A stretch of DNA of 64,000 nt from Thermoplasmata archaeon (GCA_041559015.1 JBFFED010000001.1:2361-66360); one strand, 5' to 3'; shown: positions 6,596 to 58,222, counted from the first letter of the stretch. A program made the numbers and translations. The notes: generated by a model not told the origin, from the sequence alone.

Positions 6596-7081
6596 GTGGT
6601 CAAGCTATGGGAGATGCTGGCGAAGCACCACGAGGGCGTCTCAGAGCACTTCCGGCTGGCCTGGGACAGCAAGAGGAACTGGGCCAAGTACCTCGACCAG
6701 AAGTTCTCTGAGGTCAGTACCAAGCTGATCGTGGCCGAGGAGGACGGGGAGATAGTGGGGTTCATGCTCTGCTTGTTGTCCCCCAACGCCCCGATATTCA
6801 AGGAGAGGAAGATAGGCGTCATATCGGATGTGTTCGTGCTCGAGGAGCGACGCAGGAAGGGTGTCACCCGCAAGATGCTGGACGTGGGCATCAGGTGGTT
6901 CAGGAAGAATAAGGTGAGGTTCGTGCAGCTTGGCGTGGCGCATCACAACATGGATGCGAGGGCGGCCTGGAGGAACCTCGGATTCGAGCCGTACATGATC
7001 CATAAGCGGCTCGACCTGGACAGGGATGACAGGCGTGAGAAGGTCAAGAGAATAGTGACCAGGAAGAAGGTCCGCGGATGA
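6596..7081 (+). CDS. GNAT-family N-acetyltransferase (start probably upstream, non-canonical)
   Basis: GNAT motifs (…GFMLCLLS…, RRRKGVTRKML, acetyl-CoA pocket). In-frame upstream sequence encodes IPSIRIEIRDATEDDLPS, the expected GNAT beta1/alpha1, with no ATG/GTG/TTG before the GTG at 6596. An ATT at about 6542 is preceded by a GGAG-like SD. Confidence 0.7.
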   Translation: MVKLWEMLAKHHEGVSEHFRLAWDSKRNWAKYLDQKFSEVSTKLIVAEEDGEIVGFMLCLLSPNAPIFKERKIGVISDVFVLEERRRKGVTRKMLDVGIRWFRKNKVRFVQLGVAHHNMDARAAWRNLGFEPYMIHKRLDLDRDDRREKVKRIVTRKKVRG

Positions 7082-7099: not shown

Positions 7100-8251
7100 T
7101 CAGGCCAGGACCCTCTTGATCCGTTCCATGCCTTCCTGGATGTTCTTCTTGTCGGTCGCATACGATATGCGTATGTGCTGCTCGCCCGCCTTGCCGAACG
7201 CCGCGCCACCCGTGACCGCGACCTCGGCCTTGTCCATGAGGTGCAGCGCGAACTTCTCAGAGCCCATCTCGGCTTCGTACCTCGGGAAGACATAGAAGGC
7301 GCCCTTGGGCCTGTCGCAGTGAAGGCTCGGGATGTCCTTCATCAGATCCATGATCAGGTCCCTGCGCTCCTGGAACTCCCTGACCATCTCCTTGACCGGC
7401 TCCTTGGGCCCTGTCATCGCCGCAAGCCCCCCGTACTGGGCGAAAGAGGTGGCGTGGGTGATCGAGTGCTGCTGCACCTTGTTGATGCCCGCGAATATCG
7501 GTTTCGGGGCGAGCAACCATCCGAGCCTCCAGCCGGTCATCGCGTAGGTCTTGCTGAAACCGCTTATGGTGATGGTACGCTCCATCATGCCGGGCTCGGC
7601 CGCCATTGAATGGTGCTTCAGGCCGTCGAATATGATCTTCTCGTACACCTCGTCCGCGAGCACCACGAGGTCGTGGTCCTTCGCGAGGTCAGCGATGCCC
7701 TTGATGTCGTCGTGCGTCTCGACAGCGCCGCACGGGTTCGAAGGGGAGTTGTAGAGTATCATCTTGGTCTTCGGGGTGATGAGCTCGGCCACAGCATCCG
7801 GGGTCATCCTCCACTCGGACTCCTCGGTGGTCGTGCAGGGAACCGCCCTGCCGCCAGCCAGGACCACGCACGGCTCGTATGTCACCCATGACGGGTCGGG
7901 CATGATGACCTCCTCGCCCTCGTTGACCGTGGCCATGACCGACTCGAATATGGCGTGCTTGGTCGGGGCCACCAGGACGTTGGACGGTTCGCAGGGGATT
8001 CCGTTGGCCTCCTTGGCCTCCTTGGCTATGGCCTCCCTCAGCGCAGGCAACCCGGGCGCGTTCAGGTATCTCGTCTTGCCCTCGTCGAGAGCCTTCTTTG
8101 CGGCCTCGACTATGTGCCTAGGAGTGTCGAAGTCGGGCTCCCCGACCGTGAACGAGATGATCTTCTTTCCCTCGGCCTTCTTCTGCCCGGCCAGTTCCTT
8201 CATCCTCATCGTACCAGATTCTTGGACTTTCTTGACTCGTTCAGCGATCAT
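7100..8251 (-). CDS. Class I/II pyridoxal-phosphate aminotransferase (aspartate/aromatic aminotransferase family)
   Basis: N-terminus MIAERVKKVQESG. Motifs FTVGEPDFDTP, …NSPSNPCG…, …SGFSKTYAMTGWRLG… (PLP-lysine region). Internal ATG chosen (the track ORF starts at 8314). Confidence 0.85.
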   Translation of the reverse strand: MIAERVKKVQESGTMRMKELAGQKKAEGKKIISFTVGEPDFDTPRHIVEAAKKALDEGKTRYLNAPGLPALREAIAKEAKEANGIPCEPSNVLVAPTKHAIFESVMATVNEGEEVIMPDPSWVTYEPCVVLAGGRAVPCTTTEESEWRMTPDAVAELITPKTKMILYNSPSNPCGAVETHDDIKGIADLAKDHDLVVLADEVYEKIIFDGLKHHSMAAEPGMMERTITISGFSKTYAMTGWRLGWLLAPKPIFAGINKVQQHSITHATSFAQYGGLAAMTGPKEPVKEMVREFQERRDLIMDLMKDIPSLHCDRPKGAFYVFPRYEAEMGSEKFALHLMDKAEVAVTGGAAFGKAGEQHIRISYATDKKNIQEGMERIKRVLA

Positions 8252-8377
8252 CGTGTTCACCCCACCCGTGAAGTGCGCGAGCAATATAAAGCATTGGTGT
8301 CCAACTATTGGCATGGCGCTGGGAGGCCACCACTCGCATCAAAACGATATTATGCGGAGATTGCTTTCGATTGCCCA

Positions 8378-9385
8378 ATGGCCCTCAGGACAGGCAAGCT
8401 ACCACAGGAGATTCTCAGAAGGCTGCTCAGACACAGGGGCGCGGAGGACAACTCGGTCGTCCTCGGGCCGGCTGTCGGCGAGGACGCGGCGGTCGTGAGA
8501 CTGGGCAAGGAACTCCTCGTCTTGAAGACCGACCCAGTGACCTATGCGACCGACATGATCGGGTGGTACGCGGTGCACGTCAACGCCAACGATGTAGCGA
8601 CCAGAGGGGCGAGGCCCGCCTGGTTCCAGGCGGTGATATTGCTCCCCCCGGGCTCCGAGGAGGCGCTTGCGGAGAGCATATTCAAGCAGATATCCCAGGC
8701 GGCCAGAACCCTGGGGATCGCAGTTACCGGCGGACACACCGAGGTCACCCCGGGGATCGACCGGCCCATCGTCGTCGGCGATATGCACGGCCTGCTGGGC
8801 AGGCGCAAGCCCGTGACCACCTCTGGGGCAAGGGCCGGTGACTCTCTCGTGATGACCAAGAGCGCCGGCATAGAAGGCACGGCTGCAATCGCGCGTGAGA
8901 GAAGGGAGGAGCTGCTGAGAGCCTTCGACCCCAAGATGGTCGAGAAGGCGTCGAAGTACCTGTTCAAGCCCGGCCTGTCCGTGGTCCGGGAGGCGCACGC
9001 CGCGCTCGAATTCGGTGTGAGCGCGATGCACGACCCGACCGAGGGCGGAGTGGCCATGGGGGTGTTCGAGATGGCAGCTGCGTCGAGGAAATCCTTCAAG
9101 CTCTATCCGGAGAAGGTCGTCGTTGGCAGGGAGACCTCGATGATATGCGAGAAGTACGGGCTCGATCCGCTCGGCCTGTTGGGTTCGGGAGCGCTCCTTG
9201 CGACTTTCAGCCCGAAGGACGCTGAGGCCTACTTGAGGAAGGTCCGGGGCATGGGGATCAGCGCCGCGGTCGTTGGGAAGGTCATACCGGGCAAGGGCAG
9301 GTCAATGGCGGTCGCGGGCGACGGGACGGTCACTCCGCTTTCTTCTTCGGAGCGCGACGAGATCTTGAAGGTTTTAGGGCCTTGA
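8378..9385 (+). CDS. AIR-synthase-related protein (PurM superfamily, HypE-like, COG0309)
   Basis: Begins MALRTGKLPQEILRRLL. Segment ...VHVNANDVATRGARP...IAVTGGHTEV... resembles the HypE/PurM N- and C-domain cores. The ATG at 8378 is internal to the longer track ORF, whose 5' end overlaps the divergent aminotransferase. Confidence 0.75.
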   Translation: MALRTGKLPQEILRRLLRHRGAEDNSVVLGPAVGEDAAVVRLGKELLVLKTDPVTYATDMIGWYAVHVNANDVATRGARPAWFQAVILLPPGSEEALAESIFKQISQAARTLGIAVTGGHTEVTPGIDRPIVVGDMHGLLGRRKPVTTSGARAGDSLVMTKSAGIEGTAAIARERREELLRAFDPKMVEKASKYLFKPGLSVVREAHAALEFGVSAMHDPTEGGVAMGVFEMAAASRKSFKLYPEKVVVGRETSMICEKYGLDPLGLLGSGALLATFSPKDAEAYLRKVRGMGISAAVVGKVIPGKGRSMAVAGDGTVTPLSSSERDEILKVLGP

Positions 9386-11257: not shown

Positions 11258-12022
11258 TCAGACCCTCGCGTGCCGCCTCAGAACCTCGCTCCCCAGGAGG
11301 AGTATCTCAAATCCATTCAGCTCGCCCAGCAAGACGCCGTCGTCGTCGACCACGGGAAGGTCCTCCATGCTGTTGTCTATCATCTTCCTGAGCGCGGTGA
11401 TCAACTTGTCGTCCTGGTAGACCGTGACTGGCTTGACCATGTACTCTTCCACTGAGAACGGCAACACCCCCCTCTTGCTCCTGACCACGGGCCGGTCCTT
11501 GTCGAAGAGCGACAGGGAGCTCTCGATGGCTTTCAGCATCTGATTGAGCCCGATCATCCCCAGTAGACGCCTCCCGTCATCCACCACGTACGCGCTCCTC
11601 GTCCGAGGGTCCGCGAGGACCCTGTCCACGACCTCGTTGAGTATCATCCTCTGCGTGACGATTATCGGGTCGGTCACCACGAGCCTGAAGGCGTCCCGAA
11701 CATACCGGAATGAGAGTTCGTCAGCCATCCTCTCGAACATCCCTGCGCTCAGCTCCCGCTCGACTATCTCGAGCGCGGACCTGCCTGTCTGGGTCAGGGT
11801 GTGCTTCTTCCAGGTCCTCCTGCCAGGCTCCAATTGCTCGAGCACGCCCCTCGACTCCAGCTCCTTGAGGCCGGTGCTCACGTTCTGAATGGAGCGGCCA
11901 GAGTCCTGAGCAATCTCTGAAGCGCCTGCGAACTTGTGGTGCTTGAAGTACCTGATGGTCACGAGCCGTCTGTCGGATCTTATAATCCACTTCGCGATAT
12001 CCCTGGTGTCATTCTCCGCCAT
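11258..12022 (-). CDS. Transcriptional regulator with N-terminal winged-helix DNA-binding domain and a CBS domain pair
   Basis: wHTH region (…ASEIAQDSGRSIQNVSTGLKELESRGVLEQ…) followed by two CBS-like units (…DPIIVTQRMILNEVVDRVL…, …KPVTVYQDDKLITALRKMIDNSMEDLPVVDDDGVLLG…). Divergent from the opine-dehydrogenase operon. Confidence 0.7.
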   Translation of the reverse strand: MAENDTRDIAKWIIRSDRRLVTIRYFKHHKFAGASEIAQDSGRSIQNVSTGLKELESRGVLEQLEPGRRTWKKHTLTQTGRSALEIVERELSAGMFERMADELSFRYVRDAFRLVVTDPIIVTQRMILNEVVDRVLADPRTRSAYVVDDGRRLLGMIGLNQMLKAIESSLSLFDKDRPVVRSKRGVLPFSVEEYMVKPVTVYQDDKLITALRKMIDNSMEDLPVVDDDGVLLGELNGFEILLLGSEVLRRHARV

Positions 12023-12248
12023 GCTATCACTGAGCGAGCCGCAGGACTGGACTCTCTACCGCGCATGCCCTTCGATGATAATCGCTGGCAACCGTTTAAT
12101 AGTTATTCATCATTTATCATAATTAGTCATAGGGATGGCCCCTACTGATCCTCGCCATCTGTGAAACAGACCAGCTGGGGGCATCCCGCAAAGTTATCAC
12201 GAGGGTGTAAGTCTGCGTACCTCCAAATCGAGAGGTGAATCGAGGCCG

Positions 12249-13328
12249 ATTTTCGCGGTCCTTGGGGCCGGGCATGGCGGCCTGGCGATGGCCGGGCACC
12301 TGGCGATCATGGGCTTCCCCACGCGACTCTGGAACAGGTCGCGTGAGAGGATAGACAACGTCAACGACAGGGGCGGCGTCGAGGTCGAGGGGGTCATCGA
12401 GGGCTACGGCAATGTGGAGCTTGCCTCGGACGACATCGAGGAGGTGCTCGACGGCGCGGACGTCGTGATGGTAGTCGTGCCCGCACCTGGGCACAGAGAC
12501 GTCGCCGAGCTGTGCGCGCCCTATCTCACCAATAGGCACTCCGTGATACTCAATCCCGGCAGGACCTTCGGGGCGATAGAGTTCATGAACGTGCTCAGGC
12601 AGAAGAAGGTCAAGGCAAGGCCAATCGTCGCCGAGACGCAGACTTTCATCTATGTGTCAAGGCACGCGGAGCCGGCCAGGGCTAGGATAATCCAGATGAA
12701 GAACTCGGTGCCCTTGGCGGCCATCCCCGCGCACAAGACGCCCCAGGTCCTCGAAGTCGTGAGACGCGCCTTCCCGCAGTTCGTGGCAGCGAGCAACGTG
12801 CTCGAGACGAGCCTCGACAACATAGGTGCGATATTCCACCCGTCGCTCACAATCCTGAATGCCGCAAGGATAGAGTCCACGCACGGGGATTTCGAGTACT
12901 ACCTCGAGGGCATCTCGCCCTCTGCCGCAAGGGTCCTGGAATCGGCGGACGCGGAGCGGGTGGGCGTCGGTGCCGCACTCGGGATACATCTACACACAGC
13001 AAGGGAATGGCTCTATCTAGCCTACGACTCCCCTGGGAGAAGTCTCTACGAGGCGGTCCAGGCGACCCCCGGATACAAAGGCGTCCGCGCCCCCGCCACC
13101 TTGACCCACAGATACATCCTGGAGGACGTCCCCATGAGCCTCGTGCCCATCACATCAGTTGCAGGGCTCGCCGGGGTGAAGACCCCGACCCTCCAGACGC
13201 TCATACATCTTGCATCGACCATGCACGGCCGAGACTTCTGGGCCGAGGGAAGGACCGTCGAGAAGCTCGGGCTGGCAGGCATGTCAGTCAAGGACATCAG
13301 GATGCTGGCCGTCAGGGGTGTGCGCTGA
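12249..13328 (+). CDS. Opine (octopine/nopaline) dehydrogenase-family NAD(P)H oxidoreductase; start likely ATT upstream of the first ATG
   Basis: The track ORF begins at ATG 12288 (MAGHLAIMGF…). The in-frame upstream codons encode IFAVLGAGHGGLA, the GxGxxG Rossmann strand, with no canonical start. GAGGTGA SD-like sequence lies about 9 nt before the ATT at about 12249. C-terminal region matches the Octopine_DH-type domain. Confidence 0.75.
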   Translation: MFAVLGAGHGGLAMAGHLAIMGFPTRLWNRSRERIDNVNDRGGVEVEGVIEGYGNVELASDDIEEVLDGADVVMVVVPAPGHRDVAELCAPYLTNRHSVILNPGRTFGAIEFMNVLRQKKVKARPIVAETQTFIYVSRHAEPARARIIQMKNSVPLAAIPAHKTPQVLEVVRRAFPQFVAASNVLETSLDNIGAIFHPSLTILNAARIESTHGDFEYYLEGISPSAARVLESADAERVGVGAALGIHLHTAREWLYLAYDSPGRSLYEAVQATPGYKGVRAPATLTHRYILEDVPMSLVPITSVAGLAGVKTPTLQTLIHLASTMHGRDFWAEGRTVEKLGLAGMSVKDIRMLAVRGVR

Positions 13329-14986
13329 TTAGGATCCTTGGAGCGGCCATAGGCAACTGTGTCCACGTCGGCGGCATAAATGCGTTCCTGGGGCTGGCGA
13401 AGGGCATGGGATACGAGGTAGAGTTCATGGGCCCTGCGGTCCCGGTCAGGCAGCTGGTGCCCGCGATCAAGCTCAAGAACCCGGACATAGTCGCGCTGAG
13501 CTACAGGTTGACCGCAGAGTCTGCGGCACCCATCTTCGAGGAGCTGAAGGCGGAGATCGAGAAGGACCCTGCCCTTCAGGGCAGGCGATACCTCTTCGGG
13601 GGCACCGCCCCCGTTGCGATGGTCGCCCGCGACAGCGGCATCTTCGAGGCGGCGTTCGACGGCAGCGAGCCTGTGGAGGCCATCAAGGCGGCCCTTCAGA
13701 GAGTACCCGTACCCAAGGAGGAGAGGGTCTGGAGCCCGAGCCTCATAGGTCGGATAGAGAGCTCGTACCCCGTCCCGCTCCTTAGACACCATTTCGGGCT
13801 GCCGAGGATGAAGGACACCCTCGAGGGCGCGAGGAGAATCGCGGAGGCGGGTGTTCTGGACATACTCTCCCTGGCACCCGACCAGAACGCCCAGGAATCC
13901 TTCTTCCGGCCGATGGAGATGGACCCGAACCTGGACGGCGCCGGGGGCGCGCCCTTCAGGAGGCCTGAAGACCTGAAGGCGGTCTGGGACGCCACCAGAA
14001 GGGGCAGCCACCCGCTCCTGAGATGCTACAGCGGCACTCGCGACCTCATAAAGTGGGCGGAGATGCTCAAGTCAACGATCGACATTGCCTGGGGGGCAGT
14101 GCCGATCTCCTGGTACAGTGAGCTGGACGGCCGGTCGAAGCGCCCGCTCAGGGACGCGATCGCGGAGAACCAGGAGGCCATCAGGTGGTACGCCCGGAGC
14201 GGAATCCCGGTCGAGATAAACGAGTCGCATCAGTGGGCCCTGAGGGGCTGCGGCGACACTATAGAGCTTGCGATGGCGTACGTTGCCGCCTGCAACGCGC
14301 GCGCGCTCGGCGTTAGGGACTACGTTTGCCAGCTCATGTTCGACACGCCGAAGGGCATCTCGCCTTCCATGGACCTGGCGAAGATGCTCGCCAAGCTGGA
14401 ACTCGTCGAATCGCTCGCGAACGGCACGTTCAAAGTCATCAGGATGGTGAGGTCCGGGCTGGCATCCCTGTCACCTTCCCAGAATGAGGCGAAGGGCCAG
14501 CTCGCCGCGTCGATATACTCCGCCATGTCCCTTCAGCCGCACATAGTCCATGTCGTTGGTTTCAGCGAGGCCGACCACGTCGCCACGCCCCAGGAGATAA
14601 TCGAGAGCTGTCAGATAGCGAAGGGGGCCGTGGCCAAGGCCCTGCTTGGCATGCCGAGCCCCGAGGCCGATCCAAAGATCGCGGCCAGGAAGGCGCAGCT
14701 GCTTGAGGAGGTGAAGTTCCTCCTGGACGCGGTCAAGAGGACTGGCAGCAAGGAGGTCAAGGAGCCGCTCACATCGCCCGAGGTACTGTCAATGGCGGTG
14801 AAGCGCGGGCTCCTGGACGCCCCCGACCTCAAGGGGAACCCTGCAGCGCTCGGCTCGATCACGACCACGATCGTCAACGGCGCGTGCGTGGCAGTCGACA
14901 GGGCCTCGAACCTTCCGATTCTGGAGAGGGACCGGGTGGCGAAGCTCGCAACAACCGAGGAGGACCTCGACCTCGTGGAGATATAG
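13328..14986 (+). CDS. Fusion of MutS-like B12-binding-type domain and GlmE-like domain (methylaspartate/glutamate-mutase-like)
   Basis: N-terminal about 130 aa resemble the glutamate-mutase S subunit fold (RILGAAIGNCVHVGG…GYEVEFMGPAV…DIVALSYRLT…) but lack the Asp of DxHxxG. The remainder aligns in pattern to GlmE/MamB (…GAVPISWYSELDGRS…IRWYARSGIPVEINESHQWAL…). The only in-frame ATG/GTG/TTG is far upstream inside the opine dehydrogenase gene, so start is placed at the ATT overlapping the opine dehydrogenase stop. Confidence 0.6.
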   Translation: MRILGAAIGNCVHVGGINAFLGLAKGMGYEVEFMGPAVPVRQLVPAIKLKNPDIVALSYRLTAESAAPIFEELKAEIEKDPALQGRRYLFGGTAPVAMVARDSGIFEAAFDGSEPVEAIKAALQRVPVPKEERVWSPSLIGRIESSYPVPLLRHHFGLPRMKDTLEGARRIAEAGVLDILSLAPDQNAQESFFRPMEMDPNLDGAGGAPFRRPEDLKAVWDATRRGSHPLLRCYSGTRDLIKWAEMLKSTIDIAWGAVPISWYSELDGRSKRPLRDAIAENQEAIRWYARSGIPVEINESHQWALRGCGDTIELAMAYVAACNARALGVRDYVCQLMFDTPKGISPSMDLAKMLAKLELVESLANGTFKVIRMVRSGLASLSPSQNEAKGQLAASIYSAMSLQPHIVHVVGFSEADHVATPQEIIESCQIAKGAVAKALLGMPSPEADPKIAARKAQLLEEVKFLLDAVKRTGSKEVKEPLTSPEVLSMAVKRGLLDAPDLKGNPAALGSITTTIVNGACVAVDRASNLPILERDRVAKLATTEEDLDLVEI

Positions 14987-14999
14987 GAGTTCGGATACG

Positions 15000-16475
15000 A
15001 TGCAAGGGATAGCAGGCACATATGGTTCGCCTGACCGGATACTGGCAAGACGGATGGTCGAGAGGATCTCGCACAGGGGTCCAGACAGGAAGGACATGAT
15101 CGAAGATGACGGACTGGCAATCGCGGCTCGTAAGCCCAGGCCGTCCCCGAAAGGCACCGCCAGGGCAATCGTGGAAGGAGATGGTATCGCAGTAGCGTCG
15201 GACAGCTACCTGTTCAACTCGGAGCTCCTCAAGGAGCTCTTCCTGGAGGACTCGGATGAGGACGCCGGAGACGCCGACCTCCTCATAGACATGTACACGG
15301 CCATAGGGACGAAGATGTTCGGGTACCTCGATGGGGCTTTCGCAATCGCGATATCCGACAACGGCCGGCTGGTGCTCGCGAGGGACAGGTACGGACTGAA
15401 ACCCATGTACATCTCCGGGGGCGTCCGCGAGGGCACCTTCTCCTCTGAGATCAAGTCCCAGCTCGTCGCGGGGGACGAGTTCGTGCCCTTCCCTCCAGGG
15501 AAGGTCCTCGTGGCCGGCAAGGGCTTCTCGCCGATGTGGCCTCGTAAGCCCCCGGTGAGCAGGAGCCGCCCGTCAGGAGACAAGCCGAAGAAACTCCGAC
15601 AGCTGGTGATCGACGGGGTGAGGAGCTGCTGCCGGGAAGGGCAGGGTCTGAACGTCCTGCTCAGCGGAGGGATAGACAGCAGCGTGGTTGCCGCAGCGGC
15701 GTCCGAGGTGACGGACGGGCTGTCAACTGTCTGCGTGGGGACCGAGCGGAGCTCGGACCTCAGGATGGCGAGGAAGGTCGCGGAGAGGATAGGCTCCGAC
15801 CACAGGGAGAAGGTATACAGCACCGAGGAGATGCTCGACGTCCTAGAAGAAGTGGTCTGCGCGGCCGAGAGCTTCGATTTCCCGCTCATCAGGAGCTGCA
15901 TACCAAACTACATGGCCACGCACCTGTTTGACGACAGGCACCTGGTCACCTTGTGTGGTGAGGGGGGCGACGAGATCTTCGCGGGGTACGATTACATGCG
16001 CGCCATCAGCGGTGACGAGGCTCTGAGGAGGGAGCGCAGGAAACTGCTCAGGACAGGTTGGATGACGGGGTTCCAGAGGGTTGACAGGATGACCGCGAGC
16101 GCGTCCCTAGACGGGCGCATTCCCCTGATGGGCAGGGACATGGTCGATTTCGGGATGTCGCTCGACAGGAGGGACCTGATAGGCCCCGGCATCGAGCACA
16201 GCAAACTGATCCTGAGGAAGGCGTTCCAGAAGTCCCTGCCGAAGGAAGTCGCGTGGAGGAGGAAGCAGAGGTTCAGCGACGGCGCTGGTTCCATCCAAGC
16301 CCTGGTGTCGATAGCCGAGGATATGATATCCGATGCCGAATTCGAGAAGGAGCGGAGGGTGCTCCCCAGGGGAAGGATAAGGACGAAGGAAGAGCTCCTG
16401 TACTACCGTTACTTCACCGAGGAGTTCCCGTCCAAGAGCGCGGCGGCGGCGGTCGGCTTCACTCCTAGGCCTTAG
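15000..16475 (+). CDS. Asparagine-synthetase-family (AsnB-like) ATP-dependent amide synthetase lacking the N-terminal Cys nucleophile
   Basis: MQGIAGTYG… has Gln where class-II amidotransferases have Cys2. Intact PP-loop SGGIDSS and C-terminal synthetase domain. 491 aa. Confidence 0.85.
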   Translation: MQGIAGTYGSPDRILARRMVERISHRGPDRKDMIEDDGLAIAARKPRPSPKGTARAIVEGDGIAVASDSYLFNSELLKELFLEDSDEDAGDADLLIDMYTAIGTKMFGYLDGAFAIAISDNGRLVLARDRYGLKPMYISGGVREGTFSSEIKSQLVAGDEFVPFPPGKVLVAGKGFSPMWPRKPPVSRSRPSGDKPKKLRQLVIDGVRSCCREGQGLNVLLSGGIDSSVVAAAASEVTDGLSTVCVGTERSSDLRMARKVAERIGSDHREKVYSTEEMLDVLEEVVCAAESFDFPLIRSCIPNYMATHLFDDRHLVTLCGEGGDEIFAGYDYMRAISGDEALRRERRKLLRTGWMTGFQRVDRMTASASLDGRIPLMGRDMVDFGMSLDRRDLIGPGIEHSKLILRKAFQKSLPKEVAWRRKQRFSDGAGSIQALVSIAEDMISDAEFEKERRVLPRGRIRTKEELLYYRYFTEEFPSKSAAAAVGFTPRP

Positions 16476-17268
16476 ATCGAGCCTTCTTCGCTCTGGTCTT
16501 GCGTGCAGCCGGAGTGCGGGCGGGCGGTATCACGTTCCTGCGGCGCTCAGCGGTGGTGTACCTGCAGGCCAACTGACACGCCGTGCACATGACAGTGCTC
16601 TGGGGCGTAAGGGCGGCACAGTGCTTCGACAGCAACTGCTTCAGCTCTGGCTTCGCGCCGGGAGTGGTCGTCACGCCCACGAGGCACCTGCCAGGGTCGA
16701 CCGTGTACGGCTCGAGGGCGTCCGCGGGACAGGCGGTTAGGCATCTCTCGCACTTCCCGCACAGGTCGCCCTCGAAAGGCCTGTCGGGGGCGAGGGGTGC
16801 GTTGGTCAGCACGGCTCCGAACCGGAGCCACGGGCCGTACTTGGGGTGTATGATGAGGGCGTTCTTGCCGTAGCTGCCTACCCCCGCGAGCTGGGCGATG
16901 CGCTTGTAAGAGGCGTACACGGACGGAGCGCACGCCTCGAAGCCGTAGTTCCTGATCACTCTCATCAGCTCGCGCATGATTATGCTGATGGGCATGTATC
17001 CGGGATAGTCCTGACGGCCATCTGACCGCCTGATCTCTATCTCGTCCGCATCGTCGGTCGACAATATGCCGAACAGGACGACCGATCTAGCGTCCGGCAT
17101 AGTGTCGCGTAGCTTCTTGGTCCACCTGTTTATGGTCCACTCGATCTTCACGGGGGGGAGTGCGTCAGCGTCGTCCACTGAGACGATTCCGAACACGACC
17201 GCGCCCTTCTTCCTGGCCCTGTCCCTGAGCACGTCCTTCAGGTCTGCATCTCTCTTGACCGGCACCAT
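16465..17268 (-). CDS. QueG-like Fe-S oxidoreductase (DUF1730 plus two 4Fe-4S ferredoxin motifs)
   Basis: …IIHPKYGPWLRFGAVLTNAPL…CGKCERCLTACP… and a second Cys cluster (…CTACQLAC…) match the epoxyqueuosine-reductase architecture. Basic C-terminal tail. Confidence 0.65.
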   Translation of the reverse strand: MVPVKRDADLKDVLRDRARKKGAVVFGIVSVDDADALPPVKIEWTINRWTKKLRDTMPDARSVVLFGILSTDDADEIEIRRSDGRQDYPGYMPISIIMRELMRVIRNYGFEACAPSVYASYKRIAQLAGVGSYGKNALIIHPKYGPWLRFGAVLTNAPLAPDRPFEGDLCGKCERCLTACPADALEPYTVDPGRCLVGVTTTPGAKPELKQLLSKHCAALTPQSTVMCTACQLACRYTTAERRRNVIPPARTPAARKTRAKKARSKA

Positions 17269-18801: not shown

Positions 18802-19812
18802 TTGAGAGGCCCGCGGATATCCCCCCTGAGCCCGAAGGGGGGCACCGATCTGAAGATCAGCAAGAACCTCGCGTACGGCCTCATAGCCCTCGCCGCCGTC
18901 ATGTGGGCCAGCTCAGGCACTTTCACCGAGCTCGCCCTAGACGCGGGGGCGCGGGTGATGCAAGTCACTGTCTTCGCCTCCGTGTTCACAACGCTGATAC
19001 TGCTCCCCGCCATCGGCGTCTTCGACCCGAGATCCCTCTGGATAAGGAGGAAGGATTTCCTGCCGATGCTCGTCTTCAGCCTCATAACCGGCACATTCTT
19101 CTCCATCGCATGGTACATGTGCATCGACCTCACGGGCGTCGCCACCGCGGTCGTGCTCCTGTACGCCTACCCGAGCATCGTCACCGTCGCGTCCATCTTC
19201 CTGCTCGGCGAGAAGCTCACCCTCGGCAAGGCCCTGGCCCTGCCCCTCACATTCATCGGCTGCGTCCTGGTCGCTGGCGCGAGCGACCTCGAGACGGGCT
19301 TCTCCTTCAACCTGGCAGGGATAGCGCTCGGGATATACACCGCGCTCGCGGCGACCGTCTACTACATCTGGGGGAAGAAGTTCCTGGACAAGTACTCGGC
19401 CAACACGGTGATACTCTACATGACCGCGCTCTCGATACCGGGCATCATACTGATAGCCAACCCCATGACCATCCTGGAGAACCACATATCCGGCGAGGCG
19501 TGGGCGTACATATTCGCCATCGGGCTCTTCCCCGGCACGATAGGGTTCGTCGTGTCCATGGTAGCGCTCAGATACATCGAGGCGAGCAAGGCGAGCATAG
19601 TCGCGAGCATAGAGCCTGTGGCCGCAGTTGTCATCGCGGTCCTGGTGATCGCGGATGTGATCACCCTCCTGCAGGGGGTGGGGGTTGGGCTCGTATTCGT
19701 GGGTGTGCTCCTCCTAAGGCTGACGAGGAAGGACAAGGACGAAGGACCCAGGGTACCGTTGGGCCCTGACAATCCGGACGATGAAAAACAGGATATATCC
19801 ACCAGGGTATGA
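18802..19812 (+). CDS. DMT-superfamily (EamA-like) transporter
   Basis: Two EamA-like 5-TM repeats. Hydrophobic throughout. TTG start per the ORF track; start is uncertain. Confidence 0.75.
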   Translation: MRGPRISPLSPKGGTDLKISKNLAYGLIALAAVMWASSGTFTELALDAGARVMQVTVFASVFTTLILLPAIGVFDPRSLWIRRKDFLPMLVFSLITGTFFSIAWYMCIDLTGVATAVVLLYAYPSIVTVASIFLLGEKLTLGKALALPLTFIGCVLVAGASDLETGFSFNLAGIALGIYTALAATVYYIWGKKFLDKYSANTVILYMTALSIPGIILIANPMTILENHISGEAWAYIFAIGLFPGTIGFVVSMVALRYIEASKASIVASIEPVAAVVIAVLVIADVITLLQGVGVGLVFVGVLLLRLTRKDKDEGPRVPLGPDNPDDEKQDISTRV

Positions 19813-25046: not shown

Positions 25047-26948
25047 ATGAGAGGGGGATCTGCTAGGAGGAGCCACAAAATAGTATTCGTGGAGGACCGC
25101 AAGGAGGTCGTGCTCGAGGAGGGCAGGACCGTCCTCGAGGCCTGTCAGGCTGCGGGCATACCCATAGACTCCGTGTGCGGCGGCCGAGGTAAGTGCGGCA
25201 GGTGCAAGGTCAGGGTAACCGGGCACTTCTCCGCGGACCCGAGCCCACTGCTCTCGGAGGCAGAACGGCGCGAGGGGATTGTCCTCGCGTGCCTCGCGAG
25301 GGGTCAGGGGCACCTCAAGGTGCATGTGCTCCCCCGCTCCCGGCTGACGAAACATCAGATACTCACGACCTCGGCCGAGGAGCTGCCAGACCCCATCGCG
25401 CCATGGTGCTGGAAGGAGTTCATCGAGCTCCCCCCGGCGACGCTCTCGGACAACATCGCGGACCTGGAGAGGTTGGCAAGGGCGATGGGCGGAAGGCAGC
25501 TGTCTGTCCCCCTGGAGACCCTCAGGGAGCTCCCGGGGGCGCTCAGGGAGGGCGGATGGAAGGTCACCGTCACGATGTCCGACCTCGGGCGCGGCCCGGA
25601 GGTGGTCAGGGTGGAGCCAGGGGACACTCGCGCTAGGCTTCTCGGGATTGCGGTGGACGTCGGCACGACCACCATAGTCGTCGACCTCGTCGACCTCCTC
25701 ACCGGGAAAGTGCTGGGGACCGCATCAGACTATAACAGGCAGGTCTCCAGAGGGGAGGACGTCATCGCTCGCATGATGCACAGCGAGGAAACGGGCGTGG
25801 AAGATCTCACCGCGCTGGCGAGGGAAACCGTCAACTCGTGCATCGAGTCCCTCCTAGCCGACGAGTCCAGGAGGGCCGGCAAGGCAGTCTCCGCCCAGGA
25901 CATCGTCTCGGCCTCGGTCGCGGGCAACACCGTGATGACACACTTCTTCGCTTGCCTGTCGACCGGGCACGTGCGGCTGGAACCCTACGTTCCAGTGGTG
26001 CACAGGATGCCGGAGTTGAGCGGCGCGGACCTCGGGATGCTCATGAACCACTCGGGGAAGGTCCTGCTGTTCCCTTCCCGAGCCGGGTACGTCGGCGGCG
26101 ATGTCGTGGCGGACGTGCTCGCGAGCGGCATGCACAGGTCGGGCAGGCTCTCGCTCCTGATCGATGTAGGCACGAACGGAGAGGTGGTGCTCGGCACGAA
26201 GGACTGGATCATCACGTGCTCGTGCTCTGCCGGCCCTGCGTTCGAGGGGGCCGAGGTGTCCTGCGGCATGAGGGCCATGGAGGGCGCGATCGACCGCATA
26301 AGGATAAACGATGACCTGTCGACGACATACCACGTGATAGGAGGAGGGCCTCCCCTGGGAATCTGCGGCTCCGGCCTGATAGACCTCCTCTCCGAGATGT
26401 ACACGCACGGGGTCATCGACCGCAAGGCCAGGATACAGGAGCTCGGAGGTGGCAGGACGGTGCCCTCGGAGTCAGGCCTCGCATTCGTCGTCGAGAGGAA
26501 GGAGGAGCTGGGGAACGGAGCGCCGTCGGACATGACGATAACCGATGCCGACCTCCAGAACCTGCTAAGGACGAAGGCGGCGATATACGGTGCTTGCGCG
26601 GTCCTGCTGCGTAAGACCGGGGAGTCGCTCGATGGCATCCACAGGGTGTTCATAGCTGGCGGGTTCGGATACCACCTGGACATCGAGCGCGCGATATCCA
26701 TCGGGATGTTCCCCGACCTGCCCCGGAGGAAGTACACGTTCATAGGCAACGGCGCCCTGGGCGGCGCGAGGCTCGGGCTGTTGTCCAGGAAACGCAGGAA
26801 GGAGGCCGTGGACATCTTCGAGAAGATGACCTACCTGGAGCTGAGCGTCGACAACGAATTCTACAACGAGTTCTCCTCCTCGCTCTTCATACCGCACACA
26901 GACCTGAGCCAGTTCCCCAGCGTGGGCAAGTCGGGGGAGGATGCGTGA
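25047..26948 (+). CDS. Reductive activator of corrinoid Fe-S protein (RACo-like: N-terminal 2Fe-2S ferredoxin plus ASKHA ATPase domain)
   Basis: Plant-type ferredoxin Cys pattern (CGGRGKCGRCKV…LAC). About 500-aa ASKHA/DUF4445-like region with nucleotide-binding Gly loops (…IDVGTNGEVV…, …GICGSG…). Stop overlaps the cooC GTG start. Confidence 0.85.
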   Translation: MRGGSARRSHKIVFVEDRKEVVLEEGRTVLEACQAAGIPIDSVCGGRGKCGRCKVRVTGHFSADPSPLLSEAERREGIVLACLARGQGHLKVHVLPRSRLTKHQILTTSAEELPDPIAPWCWKEFIELPPATLSDNIADLERLARAMGGRQLSVPLETLRELPGALREGGWKVTVTMSDLGRGPEVVRVEPGDTRARLLGIAVDVGTTTIVVDLVDLLTGKVLGTASDYNRQVSRGEDVIARMMHSEETGVEDLTALARETVNSCIESLLADESRRAGKAVSAQDIVSASVAGNTVMTHFFACLSTGHVRLEPYVPVVHRMPELSGADLGMLMNHSGKVLLFPSRAGYVGGDVVADVLASGMHRSGRLSLLIDVGTNGEVVLGTKDWIITCSCSAGPAFEGAEVSCGMRAMEGAIDRIRINDDLSTTYHVIGGGPPLGICGSGLIDLLSEMYTHGVIDRKARIQELGGGRTVPSESGLAFVVERKEELGNGAPSDMTITDADLQNLLRTKAAIYGACAVLLRKTGESLDGIHRVFIAGGFGYHLDIERAISIGMFPDLPRRKYTFIGNGALGGARLGLLSRKRRKEAVDIFEKMTYLELSVDNEFYNEFSSSLFIPHTDLSQFPSVGKSGEDA

Positions 26949-27706: not shown

Positions 27707-29041
27707 TCACCCGGAGAGCGTCTTAAGCATCTTCGGCAGGCCCGAGGACTCCCTCGGGCCCACGACCACCTTCATGTCTGTCAGCTCGTTCAGCTTCCCG
27801 CTCATCCTGGTGACCATGCCCGGGATGACTATCTCGTTCCTGGTGCACTTCTCCTTGACCTTCTCCGCCTCTATGAGCGTCGCGACCGACTCCGGCGTCA
27901 GCTTGCCCGCGGCGAACGCGGTCATGACCGACTGGCCGTCGGTGTCGACCACCAGGAGCCAGACGGGGAGCTTGCTCTTCTCTATGTCCGCGCGCACAGT
28001 GAAGTACGTCAGCGAGAAGTTGGTGGTGAACAGCAGGGGCGAGCTGCCTGTGGGCTCGCCCACCGTGTACAGGCCCGCCTTGACCTGTATCGGCACCTGC
28101 GGGTCCGTGAATATGTTCTGCCTCAGCGCCATGAGCGGGTAGACGAACTCCGGGGGCATCTCGTCCATGAGCACCACGGATGAGTACTTCATGACCCCGA
28201 GGACAGCCTTCATCCTGTCCCCTTCGGAAGTGCCGAGAACCGATATGGTCGGATACCCGAGGGGCCTGAACTTCTTCTTCACCGCCGCACGCCTGATGAT
28301 AGTCATGTTCTCCAGCATCTGCCCCGCGGACGACCCCTTGGGCTCCAGCACCAGGTCCGAAACGCCAGCCTTCTTCGCCTTGTCCGCGAGTTCGGCGAGC
28401 TTGCCCAGGTCATCGGCCCCTCCGACCACGAGCGGGAACCCGCACGCCTTCGCCGCCTGGACCATCGCATCGAAGTTGTCCGGGGTCGCCCTGTAGAGCA
28501 GCGGCCTCGCCTCGGCGCACGCAGAAGCGGCCTCTGACATCAGCTTCGGGTCCTCCGTCATGAGCACTACCGGGACGGTCATGGTCGAGGCGTACTTCGC
28601 GGCCTCGAGGAAGTCATCCGGGGTGCCGCTCGAGTGCCTGACGGCCACGGAGTCTATCCTAATCATCTGCCCGACGCGCTCGTAGTAGGTGGCCTTCGCG
28701 TCCTGCATCTTCGCCTTCATCTTCTCGAGGCCCTCGGAGTCGTCGGCTATCACGCCGAGCACAGTCGGGTGGTAGAACGTCTTGTCGTGCCTGAACAGCT
28801 GCGTCTCGTCCCCGATCTTGGCGGGCGAGCCGCTCCAGCCGAATGAGACGAGCCTCACCGGAGGCGCCCCGCTCTCCTCCAGGACGGTCTTGGCCTCGGG
28901 GCTGACGTACGGGCACGCCTCCAGGGCCACCTTCTGGTTTGCCAGCTGCATGGCGAACGCCAGGCAGGTGGGGAACTTGCACTCCCCGCAGTTCTTCTTT
29001 GGGAGGAGCTTGTAAATCTCCATCGCGGTCGGCACGCTCAT
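27707..29041 (-). CDS. acsC: Corrinoid iron-sulfur protein large subunit (AcsC/CdhE, acetyl-CoA decarbonylase/synthase gamma)
   Basis: N-terminal 4Fe-4S motif …KKNCGECKFPTCLAFAMQLA… followed by TIM-barrel and corrinoid-binding regions. Internal ATG (MSVPTAMEIYKLLP) forms an ATGA overlap with the acsD stop. Confidence 0.9.
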   Translation of the reverse strand: MSVPTAMEIYKLLPKKNCGECKFPTCLAFAMQLANQKVALEACPYVSPEAKTVLEESGAPPVRLVSFGWSGSPAKIGDETQLFRHDKTFYHPTVLGVIADDSEGLEKMKAKMQDAKATYYERVGQMIRIDSVAVRHSSGTPDDFLEAAKYASTMTVPVVLMTEDPKLMSEAASACAEARPLLYRATPDNFDAMVQAAKACGFPLVVGGADDLGKLAELADKAKKAGVSDLVLEPKGSSAGQMLENMTIIRRAAVKKKFRPLGYPTISVLGTSEGDRMKAVLGVMKYSSVVLMDEMPPEFVYPLMALRQNIFTDPQVPIQVKAGLYTVGEPTGSSPLLFTTNFSLTYFTVRADIEKSKLPVWLLVVDTDGQSVMTAFAAGKLTPESVATLIEAEKVKEKCTRNEIVIPGMVTRMSGKLNELTDMKVVVGPRESSGLPKMLKTLSG

Positions 29042-29991
29042 CCACCTCCCGCGAGGTCCTTGGCGGCCTGCCGGAAGAGCGTGACCGATTCGGGATGTCT
29101 CATGATGACGATATCCGCCCCCGCGACGACAGCGGAGTAGGCCGTGATGGCCTCCCAGTAGACGCCCCTCTCGTGGCGCGGGCCCTTCTTCGGGTCCTCC
29201 TCCATCACGTCCGGGACACCCCAGGCGCACGACGCGTCACATATGATCGGCATCTGCAGGACAGGGTCCCCTGAGAGGGCGCCCTGCCTGAGCCGCTCGA
29301 TGACTGAGTAGGAGTACTCGAGCCCCATGCCCAGCGCGGCCATCAGCGGGTCGATGATGATATTCTCAGGCTTCACGCCGAAATCGAGCAGCAGGATGTT
29401 CATCTGCTTCGCCAGGTTGATGTCCAGGTTGGAGAACGCGACCATCCCGTGCCCGTTGGCCATCGACGCGGCCGCGAGGGACTTGAAAGCCTTCTCCTCC
29501 GCGAGCCCGATGAAGAGCCGCTCGCCCTTGCCGGCGTTCGATACCGCCTCCATCAGCTTCGCGTCCTTCTCCTCGGAACCACACCCGTAGACGAGCATGG
29601 GCAGCGACACCGACTTCAGGACCTCCTTGAAGAGCGACTCGCACTCCTCGACCGGCCTGTTCTCTTCCTCGGGGTTGGCGGATGCGAGCCTCAGTAGGAG
29701 GGCGTCCGCGCCCCACTCCTTCTCGCACTTCCTGGCCCACTCCACTGGTTCCTTCGCGATCGAGCCCATGGACCCGAGCAGCGCCTCCGGGACGAGCCTG
29801 GGCGTATCCACGACGTCCATGACCACCGCGGGCGGGCGCGAGACATGGCTCTCGAACCTGTTGAACGGCAGCCCGTCCGAGCCCCCTATCACGATGCTCG
29901 AGCTCCTCGTCCCGCCCTGCTCCTTGGTCGCGCCTATGACGACCTCCCGTATCTTGCCCGCAAATCGTTCCTTCGGCACATCGAAATCCAT
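29038..29991 (-). CDS. acsD: Corrinoid iron-sulfur protein small subunit (AcsD/CdhD, delta subunit)
   Basis: 317 aa TIM-barrel protein matching CdhD/AcsD patterns. Sits directly between acsAB and acsC. Confidence 0.85.
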   Translation of the reverse strand: MDFDVPKERFAGKIREVVIGATKEQGGTRSSSIVIGGSDGLPFNRFESHVSRPPAVVMDVVDTPRLVPEALLGSMGSIAKEPVEWARKCEKEWGADALLLRLASANPEEENRPVEECESLFKEVLKSVSLPMLVYGCGSEEKDAKLMEAVSNAGKGERLFIGLAEEKAFKSLAAASMANGHGMVAFSNLDINLAKQMNILLLDFGVKPENIIIDPLMAALGMGLEYSYSVIERLRQGALSGDPVLQMPIICDASCAWGVPDVMEEDPKKGPRHERGVYWEAITAYSAVVAGADIVIMRHPESVTLFRQAAKDLAGGG

Positions 29992-52954: not shown

Positions 52955-53028
52955 TGGGCCCGGTGGGATTCGAACCCACGTCGTCGGCTCCGAAGGCCAA
53001 AAGGATATCCGGACTACCCCACGGGCCC
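52955..53028 (-). tRNA. tRNA-Arg (anticodon TCG), no encoded CCA
   Basis: Minus-strand sequence GGGCCCG-TG-GGGT-AGTCCGGAT-ATCC-TT-TTGGC-CTTCGGA-GCCGA-CGAC-GTGGG-TTCGAAT-CCCAC-CGGGCCC-A. 7-bp acceptor, U8, GG in the D-loop, U33, anticodon UCG. T-loop TTCGAAT. Followed by a T-tract. Confidence 0.75.
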
Positions 53029-58084: not shown

Positions 58085-58157
58085 TAGGCCGGCTGGGCCC
58101 ATGGTCTAGCGGTTATGACAACGCCCTTACACGGCGTAGGTCACCGGTTCGAATCCG
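58085..58157 (+). tRNA. tRNA-Val (anticodon TAC), no encoded CCA
   Basis: GGGCCCA-TG-GTCT-AGCGGTTAT-GACA-A-ACGCC-CTTACAC-GGCGT-AGGTC-ACCGG-TTCGAAT-CCGGT-TGGGCCC-A. Clean cloverleaf with U33 and anticodon UAC. Confidence 0.8.
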
Positions 58158-58222
58158 GTTGGGCCCATTCAGACTCCAGAGATGACTGAGCCGCACGCTG
58201 AGACGATCAGGATTGTGAGAAC

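Follow-up and report, generated by a model that had tools for sequence, protein, structure and literature searches.

What is made by an operon that joins an opine dehydrogenase, a predicted vitamin B12-dependent mutase and a relative of asparagine synthetase B (AsnB)? This question is raised by a 64,000-nt stretch of DNA from a Thermoplasmata archaeon (GCA_041559015.1 JBFFED010000001.1:2361-66360; G+C content of 60%), referred to here as the window, in which three long open reading frames (ORFs) lie on the same (+) strand within 12.2-16.5 kb. The first, g1 (12213..13328), encodes an opine-type dehydrogenase of the N-(1-D-carboxyethyl)-L-norvaline dehydrogenase (CENDH) subfamily, predicted to be NAD(P)H-dependent. 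It is followed by g2 (13328..14986), for a predicted adenosylcobalamin (AdoCbl)-dependent carbon-skeleton mutase of 552 amino acids, and by g3 (15000..16475, with an ATG start), for a predicted AsnB-like ATP-dependent amidating enzyme with a dead glutaminase domain. The stop codon of g1 (TGA, 13326-13328) and the ATT start of g2 (13328) have one base in common, and the stop codon of g2 (14984-14986) is separated by a 13-nt gap from the start of g3, a spacing that confirms the tight three-gene operon proposed in a first-pass annotation of the locus. The explanation preferred here, held with moderate confidence, is that the three genes form a self-contained module for biosynthesis, induced by osmotic or ionic stress, whose product would be an opine-type compatible solute. 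Confidence in the specific chemistry of the pathway is much lower than in its general role in stress.

A scan of 185,579 reference genomes returned at least 585 loci with a relative of g2, and the conservation counts given below refer to the best 80, in all of which g2 identity is at least 50%. A g1 gene is present in 76 of these loci, directly adjacent to g2 in nearly all of them, and contig ends account for three of the four exceptions; 52 loci contain g3. When the ORFs were clustered across loci, only the families of g1, g2 and g3 turned out to be broadly shared. Given that g1 is near-universal and g3 variable, the g1-g2 pair represents the core of the unit and g3 an add-on, and among close relatives, locus L042 differs from L061 and L077 solely in the presence or absence of g3.

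The archaeal hosts among these 80 loci belong to Thermoplasmatota (the source of the metagenome-assembled genomes that hold the closest relatives of all three proteins), Thorarchaeota, Promethearchaeota, Thermococci, and JdFR-19. The bacterial ones comprise Bacteroidales/Rikenellaceae, Ignavibacteria, Aminicenantes, Chloroflexi, Planctomycetia, Armatimonadota, Omnitrophota, Desantisbacteria, Firestonebacteria, and Dependentiae, together with the cultured Firmicutes Thermoanaerobacter thermocopriae, Caldanaerobacter subterraneus, Thermovorax, and Fervidicola. The operon is therefore spread over more than 10 phyla of both domains, the gene arrangement is far beyond chance, and the three genes are confirmed as a real conserved operon; the possibility, contemplated in the first-pass annotation, that they are syntenic in no other genome does not hold, and no orthologous cluster with an established function was found. 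All three genes are under purifying selection, with ratios of nonsynonymous to synonymous substitution of 0.06, 0.105, and 0.11 in comparison with locus L005, which indicates that they are functional genes and are not decaying.

The same association had been noticed before. Zhang, Rodionov, Gelfand, and Gladyshev (2009) predicted a novel B12-dependent family with a distant B12-binding domain at the N-terminus (PMC2667541), which was described as "always adjacent" to an octopine/nopaline dehydrogenase gene (pfam02317), with asparagine synthase or D-Ala-D-Ala ligase genes nearby in several genomes. That study covered 11 bacterial genomes of four phyla, and no function was proposed. The family and g2 are taken here to be the same, being matched by description rather than by sequence. 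To that account, the present analysis adds a GlmE-like barrel, archaeal members, control by riboswitches, and neighbours related to osmotic stress. The gene combination had been called undescribed when the window was annotated, which stands in the sense that no pathway of established function was found, but not for the combination itself, already reported in 2009. A search of the literature found no functional characterisation of the operon or of the g2 family after that year. By its sequence, the operon appears to be an uncharacterised unit within known enzyme superfamilies.

The identity of g1 as an opine dehydrogenase, already recognised in the annotation, is well supported by Pfam Octopine_DH (PF02317, 160.7 bits against a cut-off of 30) and NAD_Gly3P_dh_N (38.9 bits), and by an end-to-end alignment with the CENDH structure 1BG6 (E 9e-78). 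In the 65 syntenic orthologues, the glycines of the GxGxxG motif (G6, G8, and G11) never vary, nor do H197 and R288, and the conservation of D293 reaches at least 90%. The last three residues align with H202, R292, and D297 of CENDH, which we take, from the literature on CENDH and octopine dehydrogenase, to be the catalytic His/Arg/Asp. Computation therefore identifies g1 as a putative CENDH-type opine dehydrogenase with an intact catalytic triad. Compared with CENDH from Arthrobacter sp. 1C, with which it shares the full-length match, the Rossmann motif, and the equivalents of the catalytic residues, g1 differs in its setting: CENDH, from an aerobic soil bacterium, stands alone, whereas g1 appears to be translationally coupled to a B12 mutase gene.

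The beginning of g1 had been placed at 12249, in the same frame, but probably lies further upstream. No ATG, GTG, or TTG precedes the Rossmann motif in the window, and the orthologues begin 11-12 codons upstream of 12249, with TTG or ATG after a Shine-Dalgarno-like GAGGGTG site. At the orthologous position the window holds a CTG (12213), with GTA where locus L021 has GTG (12207-12215), so that CTG 12213 is most likely the start and the gene extends over 12213-13328. The start of g2 is also unusual. At the homologous codon, the relatives use ATG (six cases), GTG (four), TTG (one), and CTG (one), while ATT is found in the window (TGATT with the overlapping g1 stop, 13326-13330) and ACG in its two closest relatives, L005 and L021 (TGACG in both). 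In the relatives, this start always lies just past the g1 stop or overlaps it, after a purine run of the AGGGG type, which suggests either a translational coupling that tolerates near-cognate starts or termination-reinitiation.

The B12-binding domain is the only part of g2 recognised by Pfam (PF02310, 36.9 bits against a cut-off of 32.1), and the other ~410 residues have no sequence match in Pfam, NCBIfam, or PDB. The protein consists of a cobalamin-binding Rossmann domain with a CxHxxG motif (residues 1-125) and a GlmE-like TIM barrel with a C-terminal subdomain (~140-540). H13, G16, S58-x-x-L61, and G91-G92 are invariant in the orthologues, as are R153, R232, R269, R272, R306, R375, and E296. 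An AlphaFold model built from 40 orthologues (pLDDT 91, pTM 0.80) contains both the barrel and the subdomain, and a Foldseek search with this model agrees with a GlmE-type fold (E 2e-16). Moreover, when a GlmE alignment (A3) was built from the true GlmE of Escherichia coli O157 (L085), hhalign between the broad g2-family profile and the GlmE profile gave a probability of 79.7% (E 1.5e-5) over 298 columns.

This relationship escapes simpler searches. Those of g2 against PDB with the single sequence, the orthologue profile (A1), the broad profile (A2), or a distant relative (P0137) retrieved the B12 domain only and never GlmE, and hhalign of A1 against one E. coli GlmE sequence gave a probability of 0.15%. 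The homology with GlmE is thus visible only with profiles on both sides and with the structure. The g2 of the window does not match the family model Met_asp_mut_E (PF06368) either, and only the distant relatives P0137 (27.5 bits against a cut-off of 26.6) and P0094 do, which indicates that g2 belongs to a homologous but separate family. The annotation had proposed a fused mutase of the glutamate/methylaspartate type and profile and structure searches to check it. The fused homologue stands on the profile-profile and Foldseek matches, but the assignment to the glutamate mutase family itself does not, with neither PF06368 nor a PDB sequence match to GlmE.

According to these data, computation on sequence profiles and a structural model identifies g2 as a fused cobalamin-enzyme homologue of the GlmS-GlmE type and of a distinct family, most likely a carbon-skeleton mutase. 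With the glutamate mutase GlmS/GlmE (Clostridium cochlearium 1CB7/1CCW; E. coli O157 ECs_0762/0764) it shares the His ligand, the SxL motif, and the GG of the B12 Rossmann domain, the profile homology, and a segment in barrel strand 8, where the KTPHEA of GlmE aligns with the invariant VGFSEA of g2 (E414). The GlmE segment presumably contacts the adenosyl ribose. In contrast to glutamate mutase, g2 is one polypeptide that begins with the S-like domain, and the identity is ~15%; its operon lacks GlmL and methylaspartase, and its obligate partner is an opine dehydrogenase. Glutamate is presumably bound in GlmE by an "arginine claw" and Glu171. In the hhalign alignment, which at 15% identity is unreliable here, R148 of GlmE lies opposite Y234 of g2 (R232 being two residues earlier) and E170 opposite G256, and R66 and R100, in the first third of the barrel, fall outside the aligned part.

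An aminomutase was also considered for g2. The "KHGG" loop of 3KOW, which we assume to carry the lysine of ornithine aminomutase that binds pyridoxal 5'-phosphate (PLP; OraE Lys629), is an insertion absent from the g2 family in the profile alignment. A PLP/AdoCbl aminomutase like OraSE or KamDE is consequently disfavoured, and a carbon-skeleton mutase is favoured over it.

A paralogous branch of g2 relatives (P0149, P0153, and P0158; loci L091 and L092) consists of proteins of 826-1266 amino acids fused to the glutamate-mutase-associated MutL/GlmL. In L091 and L092 they have no adjoining opine dehydrogenase gene, and their neighbours are genes for oligopeptide ABC ATPases and an AAT protein (PF03417). 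These MutL-fused relatives (P0149) were rejected as members of the operon, as they belong to a paralogous branch with no link to the dehydrogenase.

The third protein, g3, matches Pfam Asn_synthase (PF00733, 175.9 bits) and 1CT9 (E 1e-46) and exhibits the two-domain architecture of AsnB. Nevertheless, it falls below the cut-offs of the NCBIfam AsnB model NF006949 (316.9 against 499) and TIGR01536 (209 against 267). Its SGGIDSS, GEGGDE, and WRRKQRFSDG segments, conserved in the orthologues, align with S234-S239, E348/D351, and K449 of E. coli AsnB. The aspartate-site residues T322/T323 of AsnB are replaced by P and L, D-S-Y is found at the position of N74-G75-E76, and the N-terminus (MQGIAG) has Q2 in place of Cys2. 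The description of g3 as a Cys-less AsnB-like protein holds for the window, but not for the whole family. Although most orthologues lack Cys2 (having A, S, E, Q, T, P, or I instead) and many lack the glutaminase core, eight of the 53 syntenic ones, from six phyla, keep MCGI and NGEIYN, that is, an intact glutaminase site.

A different solution is found in L090 (35-4463), in which the dehydrogenase gene is followed by one for a protein of 863 amino acids, a g2 fused at its C-terminus to a RimK/GshB-type ATP-grasp domain, and by a third gene for a class-I glutamine amidotransferase (Peptidase_C26/GATase). From its domain composition, this pair appears to have taken the place of the AsnB-like gene by non-orthologous replacement. 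Two types of carboxylate activator are found, both ATP-dependent and both occurring either with a glutaminase or lacking one, which points to the amidation of a carboxylate with ammonia. Computation thereby assigns g3 to a set of predicted interchangeable ATP-dependent amidating enzymes, accessory to the module, and the window protein probably draws on ammonia to turn a carboxylate of the pathway's product into a carboxamide. The suggestion that g3 is of the type of beta-lactam synthetase, CarA, or TblS is at odds with the ATP-grasp variant, with the intact-glutaminase orthologues, and with its similarity scores (163 bits to AsnB, 77 to beta-lactam synthetase, and 63 to CarA). Some stand-alone g3-like proteins of less than 40% identity (P0379 from Biomaibacter, and P0374) were set aside as uninformative, being asparagine synthases with unrelated neighbours.

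The closest parallel for g3 in stress physiology is AsnO, the amidotransferase for N-acetylglutaminylglutamine amide (TIGR03104); by analogy with it, g3 would neutralise a carboxylate of a stress solute. With AsnB and AsnO, g3 shares the architecture, the PP-loop, and the equivalents of E348, D351, and K449. It differs from both in its score below the AsnB equivalog cut-off and far below that of TIGR03104 (110 against 570), as well as in the dead glutaminase and the altered T322/T323 positions of the window protein.

The evidence that ties the operon to stress comes from its bacterial orthologues. Of 45 bacterial loci (668 kb) scanned with Rfam, nine were found to carry a riboswitch aptamer that exceeds the Rfam gathering score and lies directly upstream on the same strand. 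Full-length riboswitches for cyclic di-adenosine monophosphate (c-di-AMP; RF00379, 96-117 bits) precede the operon in six (L042, L046, L047, L048, L061, and L077), five from Thermoanaerobacterales and one from Armatimonadota. In L077, from Caldanaerobacter, a promoter with 11 of 12 matches, the aptamer, an intrinsic terminator, and g1 follow one another in this order. The other three loci hold nhaA-I RNAs (RF03057, 42-51 bits). L018, from Desantisbacteria, has two copies, one before g1-g2 (6766-6819) and one before g3 (11459-11511), and L031 and L027 have a single copy 5' of g2. The only other cis-regulatory RNA in the 668 kb is one distant S-adenosylmethionine (SAM) riboswitch on the opposite strand. 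In L018, genes for a CBS-domain protein and a Na+/H+ exchanger are located between g2 and the second nhaA-I copy.

The nhaA-I RNA has been validated as a Li+-sensing ON switch that can respond to Na+ too (PMC9646797), and c-di-AMP riboswitches are OFF switches that control mainly transporters of ions, osmoprotectants, and amino acids in Firmicutes (PMC9960051). Furthermore, Na+ and c-di-AMP riboswitches are known to control the genes of the osmolyte-forming mutases ablA and eam (PMC9337991). The present operon resembles these systems in having an amino-acid mutase gene behind a Na+ and/or c-di-AMP riboswitch, and also in its logic, the conversion of an abundant amino acid into a non-metabolisable isomer whose charge is then masked. 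It differs from them in its enzymes, since ablA and eam encode radical-SAM/PLP 2,3-aminomutases coupled to acetylation, and here a cobalamin-dependent GlmE-like protein is accompanied by an opine dehydrogenase and amidation. Apart from lineage-specific housekeeping genes, the recurrent neighbours of the operon are MscS channels (13 loci), a 741-amino-acid AA_permease-family transporter (11 loci), and Na+/H+ exchangers (seven loci, including two from Thermoplasmata and Kef-like fusions). The link of riboswitches and stress-related neighbours to the operon appears to be new here. Among the products envisaged when the locus was annotated as a small-molecule module, the osmolyte is thereby strongly and independently supported, while a beta-lactam or a metallophore is not.

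In Thermoplasmatota, the control region looks different. A regulator with a winged helix-turn-helix (wHTH) of the HVO_A0114 type and a CBS pair (Pfam CBS, HVO_A0114) is divergently encoded at 11258..12022 (-), as had been annotated; the gene exists as described and recurs in six or more Thermoplasmata loci. Its orthologues (66-92% identity) keep the same divergent position in L006, L008, L011, L013, L014, and L021, and in L008 and L013 the regulator gene adjoins that of a Na+/H+ exchanger. The protein is a candidate archaeal regulator of the operon. A conserved intergenic element at 12075..12133, whose promoter/operator-like function is proposed from motif comparison, consists of TGATAAT...TTTAATAG followed by ~10-bp repeats (TTATTCATCA / TTTATCATAA / TTAGTCATAG). 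The core motif TAATAGTTAYTCATCA, located with the repeats at 12097-12133, occurs upstream of g1 in the window and in nine of 11 related Thermoplasmata loci (L005-L008, L011-L014, and L021), in which protein identity is only 60-70%, and it appears once in the 64 kb against zero expected.

Between this element and the start of g1, folding predicts an inverted repeat or leader hairpin (12132..12187, +), with arms at 12132-12150 and 12169-12187, a minimum free energy of -27.8 kcal/mol, and a z of -2.8. Equivalent hairpins with lineage-specific stem sequences lie at the same position in the related loci, with z values of -2.5 to -3.5 in seven of 10. Covariation in these stems was judged by eye only, as MAFFT misaligned the variable stems for RNAalifold. 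The region may serve as a cis-regulatory leader in these archaea or as a palindromic operator. Taken together, we infer from the sequence a repressor-operator arrangement with a structured leader upstream of g1. The Rfam scan of the 64-kb window returned two tRNAs only, at 52955-53028 (-) and 58095-58167 (+), and no riboswitch.

The pathway that would account for these observations begins with a salt upshift, upon which the cell would accumulate K+ and glutamate, and the ionic stress would lift the repression of the operon. In Thermoplasmatota, this control would probably be exerted by the CBS/wHTH regulator on the operator-like repeats, possibly with the contribution of the leader hairpin. 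By AdoCbl radical chemistry, g2 would convert glutamate or a close amino-dicarboxylate into a branched isomer of the 3-methylaspartate type. The unfavourable equilibrium of this reaction would be pulled by g1, which would condense the amine with a 2-oxo acid (pyruvate, for example) at the expense of NAD(P)H to yield an inert N-carboxyalkyl, opine-type imino acid. In operons that include g3, one of the carboxylates would be adenylated and amidated, lowering the net charge of the solute, with nitrogen coming from glutamine in the Cys-containing orthologues and from free NH3 in the Cys-less ones, including that of the window. The order of the mutase and dehydrogenase steps, the substrates, and the product are all tentative.

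An analogy is offered by pyrrolysine biosynthesis, in which a radical mutase (PylB) generates a 3-methyl-branched amino acid, PylC forms an amide with ATP, and PylD is an NAD dehydrogenase that acts on an amine. Those proteins belong to the radical SAM, ATP-grasp, and PylD families, and no homology to g2, g3, and g1 is claimed.

Several observations weigh against a stress-induced solute pathway. The B12 motif of g2 is CxHxxG, with an invariant Cys11 in place of the Asp of the canonical DxHxxG; the glutamate site of GlmE does not seem to be simply conserved, so the substrate may not be glutamate; and no GlmL-type reactivase or adenosyltransferase is linked to the operon. Neither a GlmL reactivase-like MutL nor methylaspartate ammonia-lyase is conserved in 84 loci, whereas E. 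coli O157 (L085) has the two. In the window, a canonical start codon is missing from g1 and from g2 alike. With regard to regulation, riboswitches occur in only nine of the 45 bacterial loci scanned and in none of the 21 from Bacteroidota and Ignavibacteria, and the archaeal window has none, so that its link to stress is an analogy transferred from bacterial orthologues of ~50% identity. Part of the MscS and exchanger neighbourhood is synteny inherited within Bacteroidales, which leaves ~3-4 independent lineages for each. Finally, an opine of 3-methylaspartate and pyruvate would carry a charge of -2, or -1 after one amidation, and would not be a neutral zwitterion. Neutral zwitterions are typical of the solutes of mesophiles, and anionic solutes are common in thermophiles and archaea.

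The first of the alternatives accepts the same riboswitch evidence but not the solute. The operon would serve a stress-linked adjustment, acting on the pool of glutamate and K+ counter-ions, as an NAD(P)H sink (as with the opines of invertebrates), or in detoxification. Opine formation balances redox without a change in osmolarity, and the predicted anionic product suits a counter-ion better than a neutral solute. Signalling by c-di-AMP is tied to potassium/glutamate homeostasis (PMC7857571). However, a dedicated B12 enzyme and an ATP-dependent amidation would be costly for a mere sink, and the MscS release valves encoded nearby fit an accumulated solute better. This alternative is considered unlikely.

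Just as unlikely is a catabolic or fermentative role, in which g2 would rearrange an amino acid or an imported opine and g1 would oxidise its C-N bond, in parallel to the pairs of B12 mutase and dehydrogenase in the anaerobic fermentation of lysine, ornithine, and glutamate. The missing PLP-lysine loop of g2 already separates it from the aminomutases, no lyase, thiolase, CoA-transferase, or uptake system is conserved in linkage with the operon, and the ATP spent on an amide by the accessory third enzyme follows a biosynthetic logic. Control is exerted by Li+/Na+ induction and c-di-AMP repression and not by a substrate-responsive regulator. Nevertheless, every host is an anaerobe, opine dehydrogenases are reversible, and the conserved core is the g1-g2 pair alone, all of which fit catabolism.

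A contribution to the cell envelope is less probable still. The operon would provide a branched, amidated acidic amino acid for the cross-bridges or stem peptides of peptidoglycan, and enzymes such as AsnH/AsnB1, which amidate D-Asp or meso-diaminopimelate, and D-aspartate ligase offer precedents. The D-Ala-D-Ala ligase genes mentioned above in the vicinity of the B12 family in some genomes (PMC2667541) agree with this idea, as do the cell-wall genes also controlled by c-di-AMP riboswitches (PMC9960051) and a D-Ala-D-Ala carboxypeptidase gene that adjoins the operon in Thermoanaerobacter and Caldanaerobacter. However, this last gene is convergent and keeps its position with or without g3, no Mur-type ligase is conserved among the loci, and conservation of the operon reaches the same degree in Thermoplasmatota, Thorarchaeota, and other archaea, all of them devoid of peptidoglycan.

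A secondary metabolite, either an opine-type metallophore, as had been suggested from the CntM family to which g1 also belongs, or a beta-lactam/monobactam-like compound, for which the window g3 lacks Cys2 as beta-lactam synthetase, CarA, and TblS do and an N-substituted aspartate-type opine could in principle close a four-membered ring, is disfavoured as very improbable, given the scores and glutaminase-bearing variants of g3 described above, the absence among the loci of any conserved CntL/nicotianamine-synthase gene, metal transporter or importer, exporter, or resistance gene, and a housekeeping-like spread over more than 10 phyla at ~50% identity that is unlike that of a secondary-metabolite cluster.

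For the stress-induced solute module, the most specific version that can be formulated is that the operon specifies a route to a compatible solute that would be the first to depend on cobalamin. The solute would be a branched opine-type imino acid derived from the glutamate pool, amidated in operons with g3, and the route would be horizontally shared among anaerobic bacteria and archaea and controlled by riboswitches in bacteria or by the CBS/wHTH regulator in Thermoplasmatota. This version is put forward tentatively, and we regard it as somewhat less probable than the general one. Should the stress hypothesis hold, another osmolyte and another B12 reaction would be added to those known, some of the need for B12 among anaerobes of saline or ammonia-rich habitats would find an explanation, and members of two riboswitch regulons would receive a function. 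In the specific version, the CBS-wHTH regulator with its operator and leader would be a possible archaeal counterpart of the bacterial riboswitch sensors, and the regulator and hairpin could open a route to ionic-stress sensing in Thermoplasmatota. To our knowledge, few classes of AdoCbl isomerases exist, and a new substrate class would be notable. The family, flagged in 2009 and present at ~50% identity in more than 10 phyla, includes the cultured Thermoanaerobacter and Caldanaerobacter, and the link to stress gives a testable hypothesis, the salt-dependent build-up of a new solute.

Other genes of the window lie outside the conserved unit. A 267-amino-acid Fe-S protein, akin to QueG and the reductive dehalogenases (80.9 and 68.1 bits, both below the cut-offs), is encoded at 16465-17268 (-), convergent with g3 and overlapping it by 11 nt. 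QueG and the reductive dehalogenases represent another family of cobalamin enzymes. This gene is otherwise seen only in L005 and L007. The annotation had pointed to it and to a nearby major facilitator superfamily transporter gene; both are real, but they are not part of the conserved unit and are common only to two close relatives. At 18802..19812 (+), an EamA/DMT transporter (Pfam EamA) scores 89.9 bits, below the cut-off, with the NCBIfam model "carboxylate/amino acid/amine transporter". It could be a weakly linked accessory for the export or import of the solute. Its orthologues lie 3' of g3 only in L001/L009, L005, L007, and L010, and its membership in the module is uncertain.

On the 5' side, a protein related to 5-aminoimidazole ribonucleotide (AIR) synthase is encoded a few kb from the operon at 7955-9385 (+) in the window, and likewise in L002 (5151-6185) and L029 (1924-2958), so that it is found in Thermoplasmata, in the metagenome locus L002/L003, and in the Aminicenantes locus L029, with the purine/folate genes PurP and FolD adjoining. 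Its best NCBIfam matches are HypE and ThiL, all below the cut-offs, and PurM gives only 25 bits. This neighbour may be a coincidence or may perform an accessory ATP-dependent step.

Finally, a single ORF of 1399 amino acids at 30010-34209 (-) joins carbon monoxide dehydrogenase (CODH; Prismane, CODH_A_N) with the beta subunit of acetyl-CoA synthase (ACS; CdhC, ACS_CODH_B_C), and the window also contains the genes for CdhD (27707-29230, -) and the corrinoid activator RACo (25047-26948, +). The host would therefore have an ACS/CODH of the Wood-Ljungdahl type with a fused alpha-beta subunit, and the presence of these genes indicates that this archaeon uses, and depends on, corrinoids.

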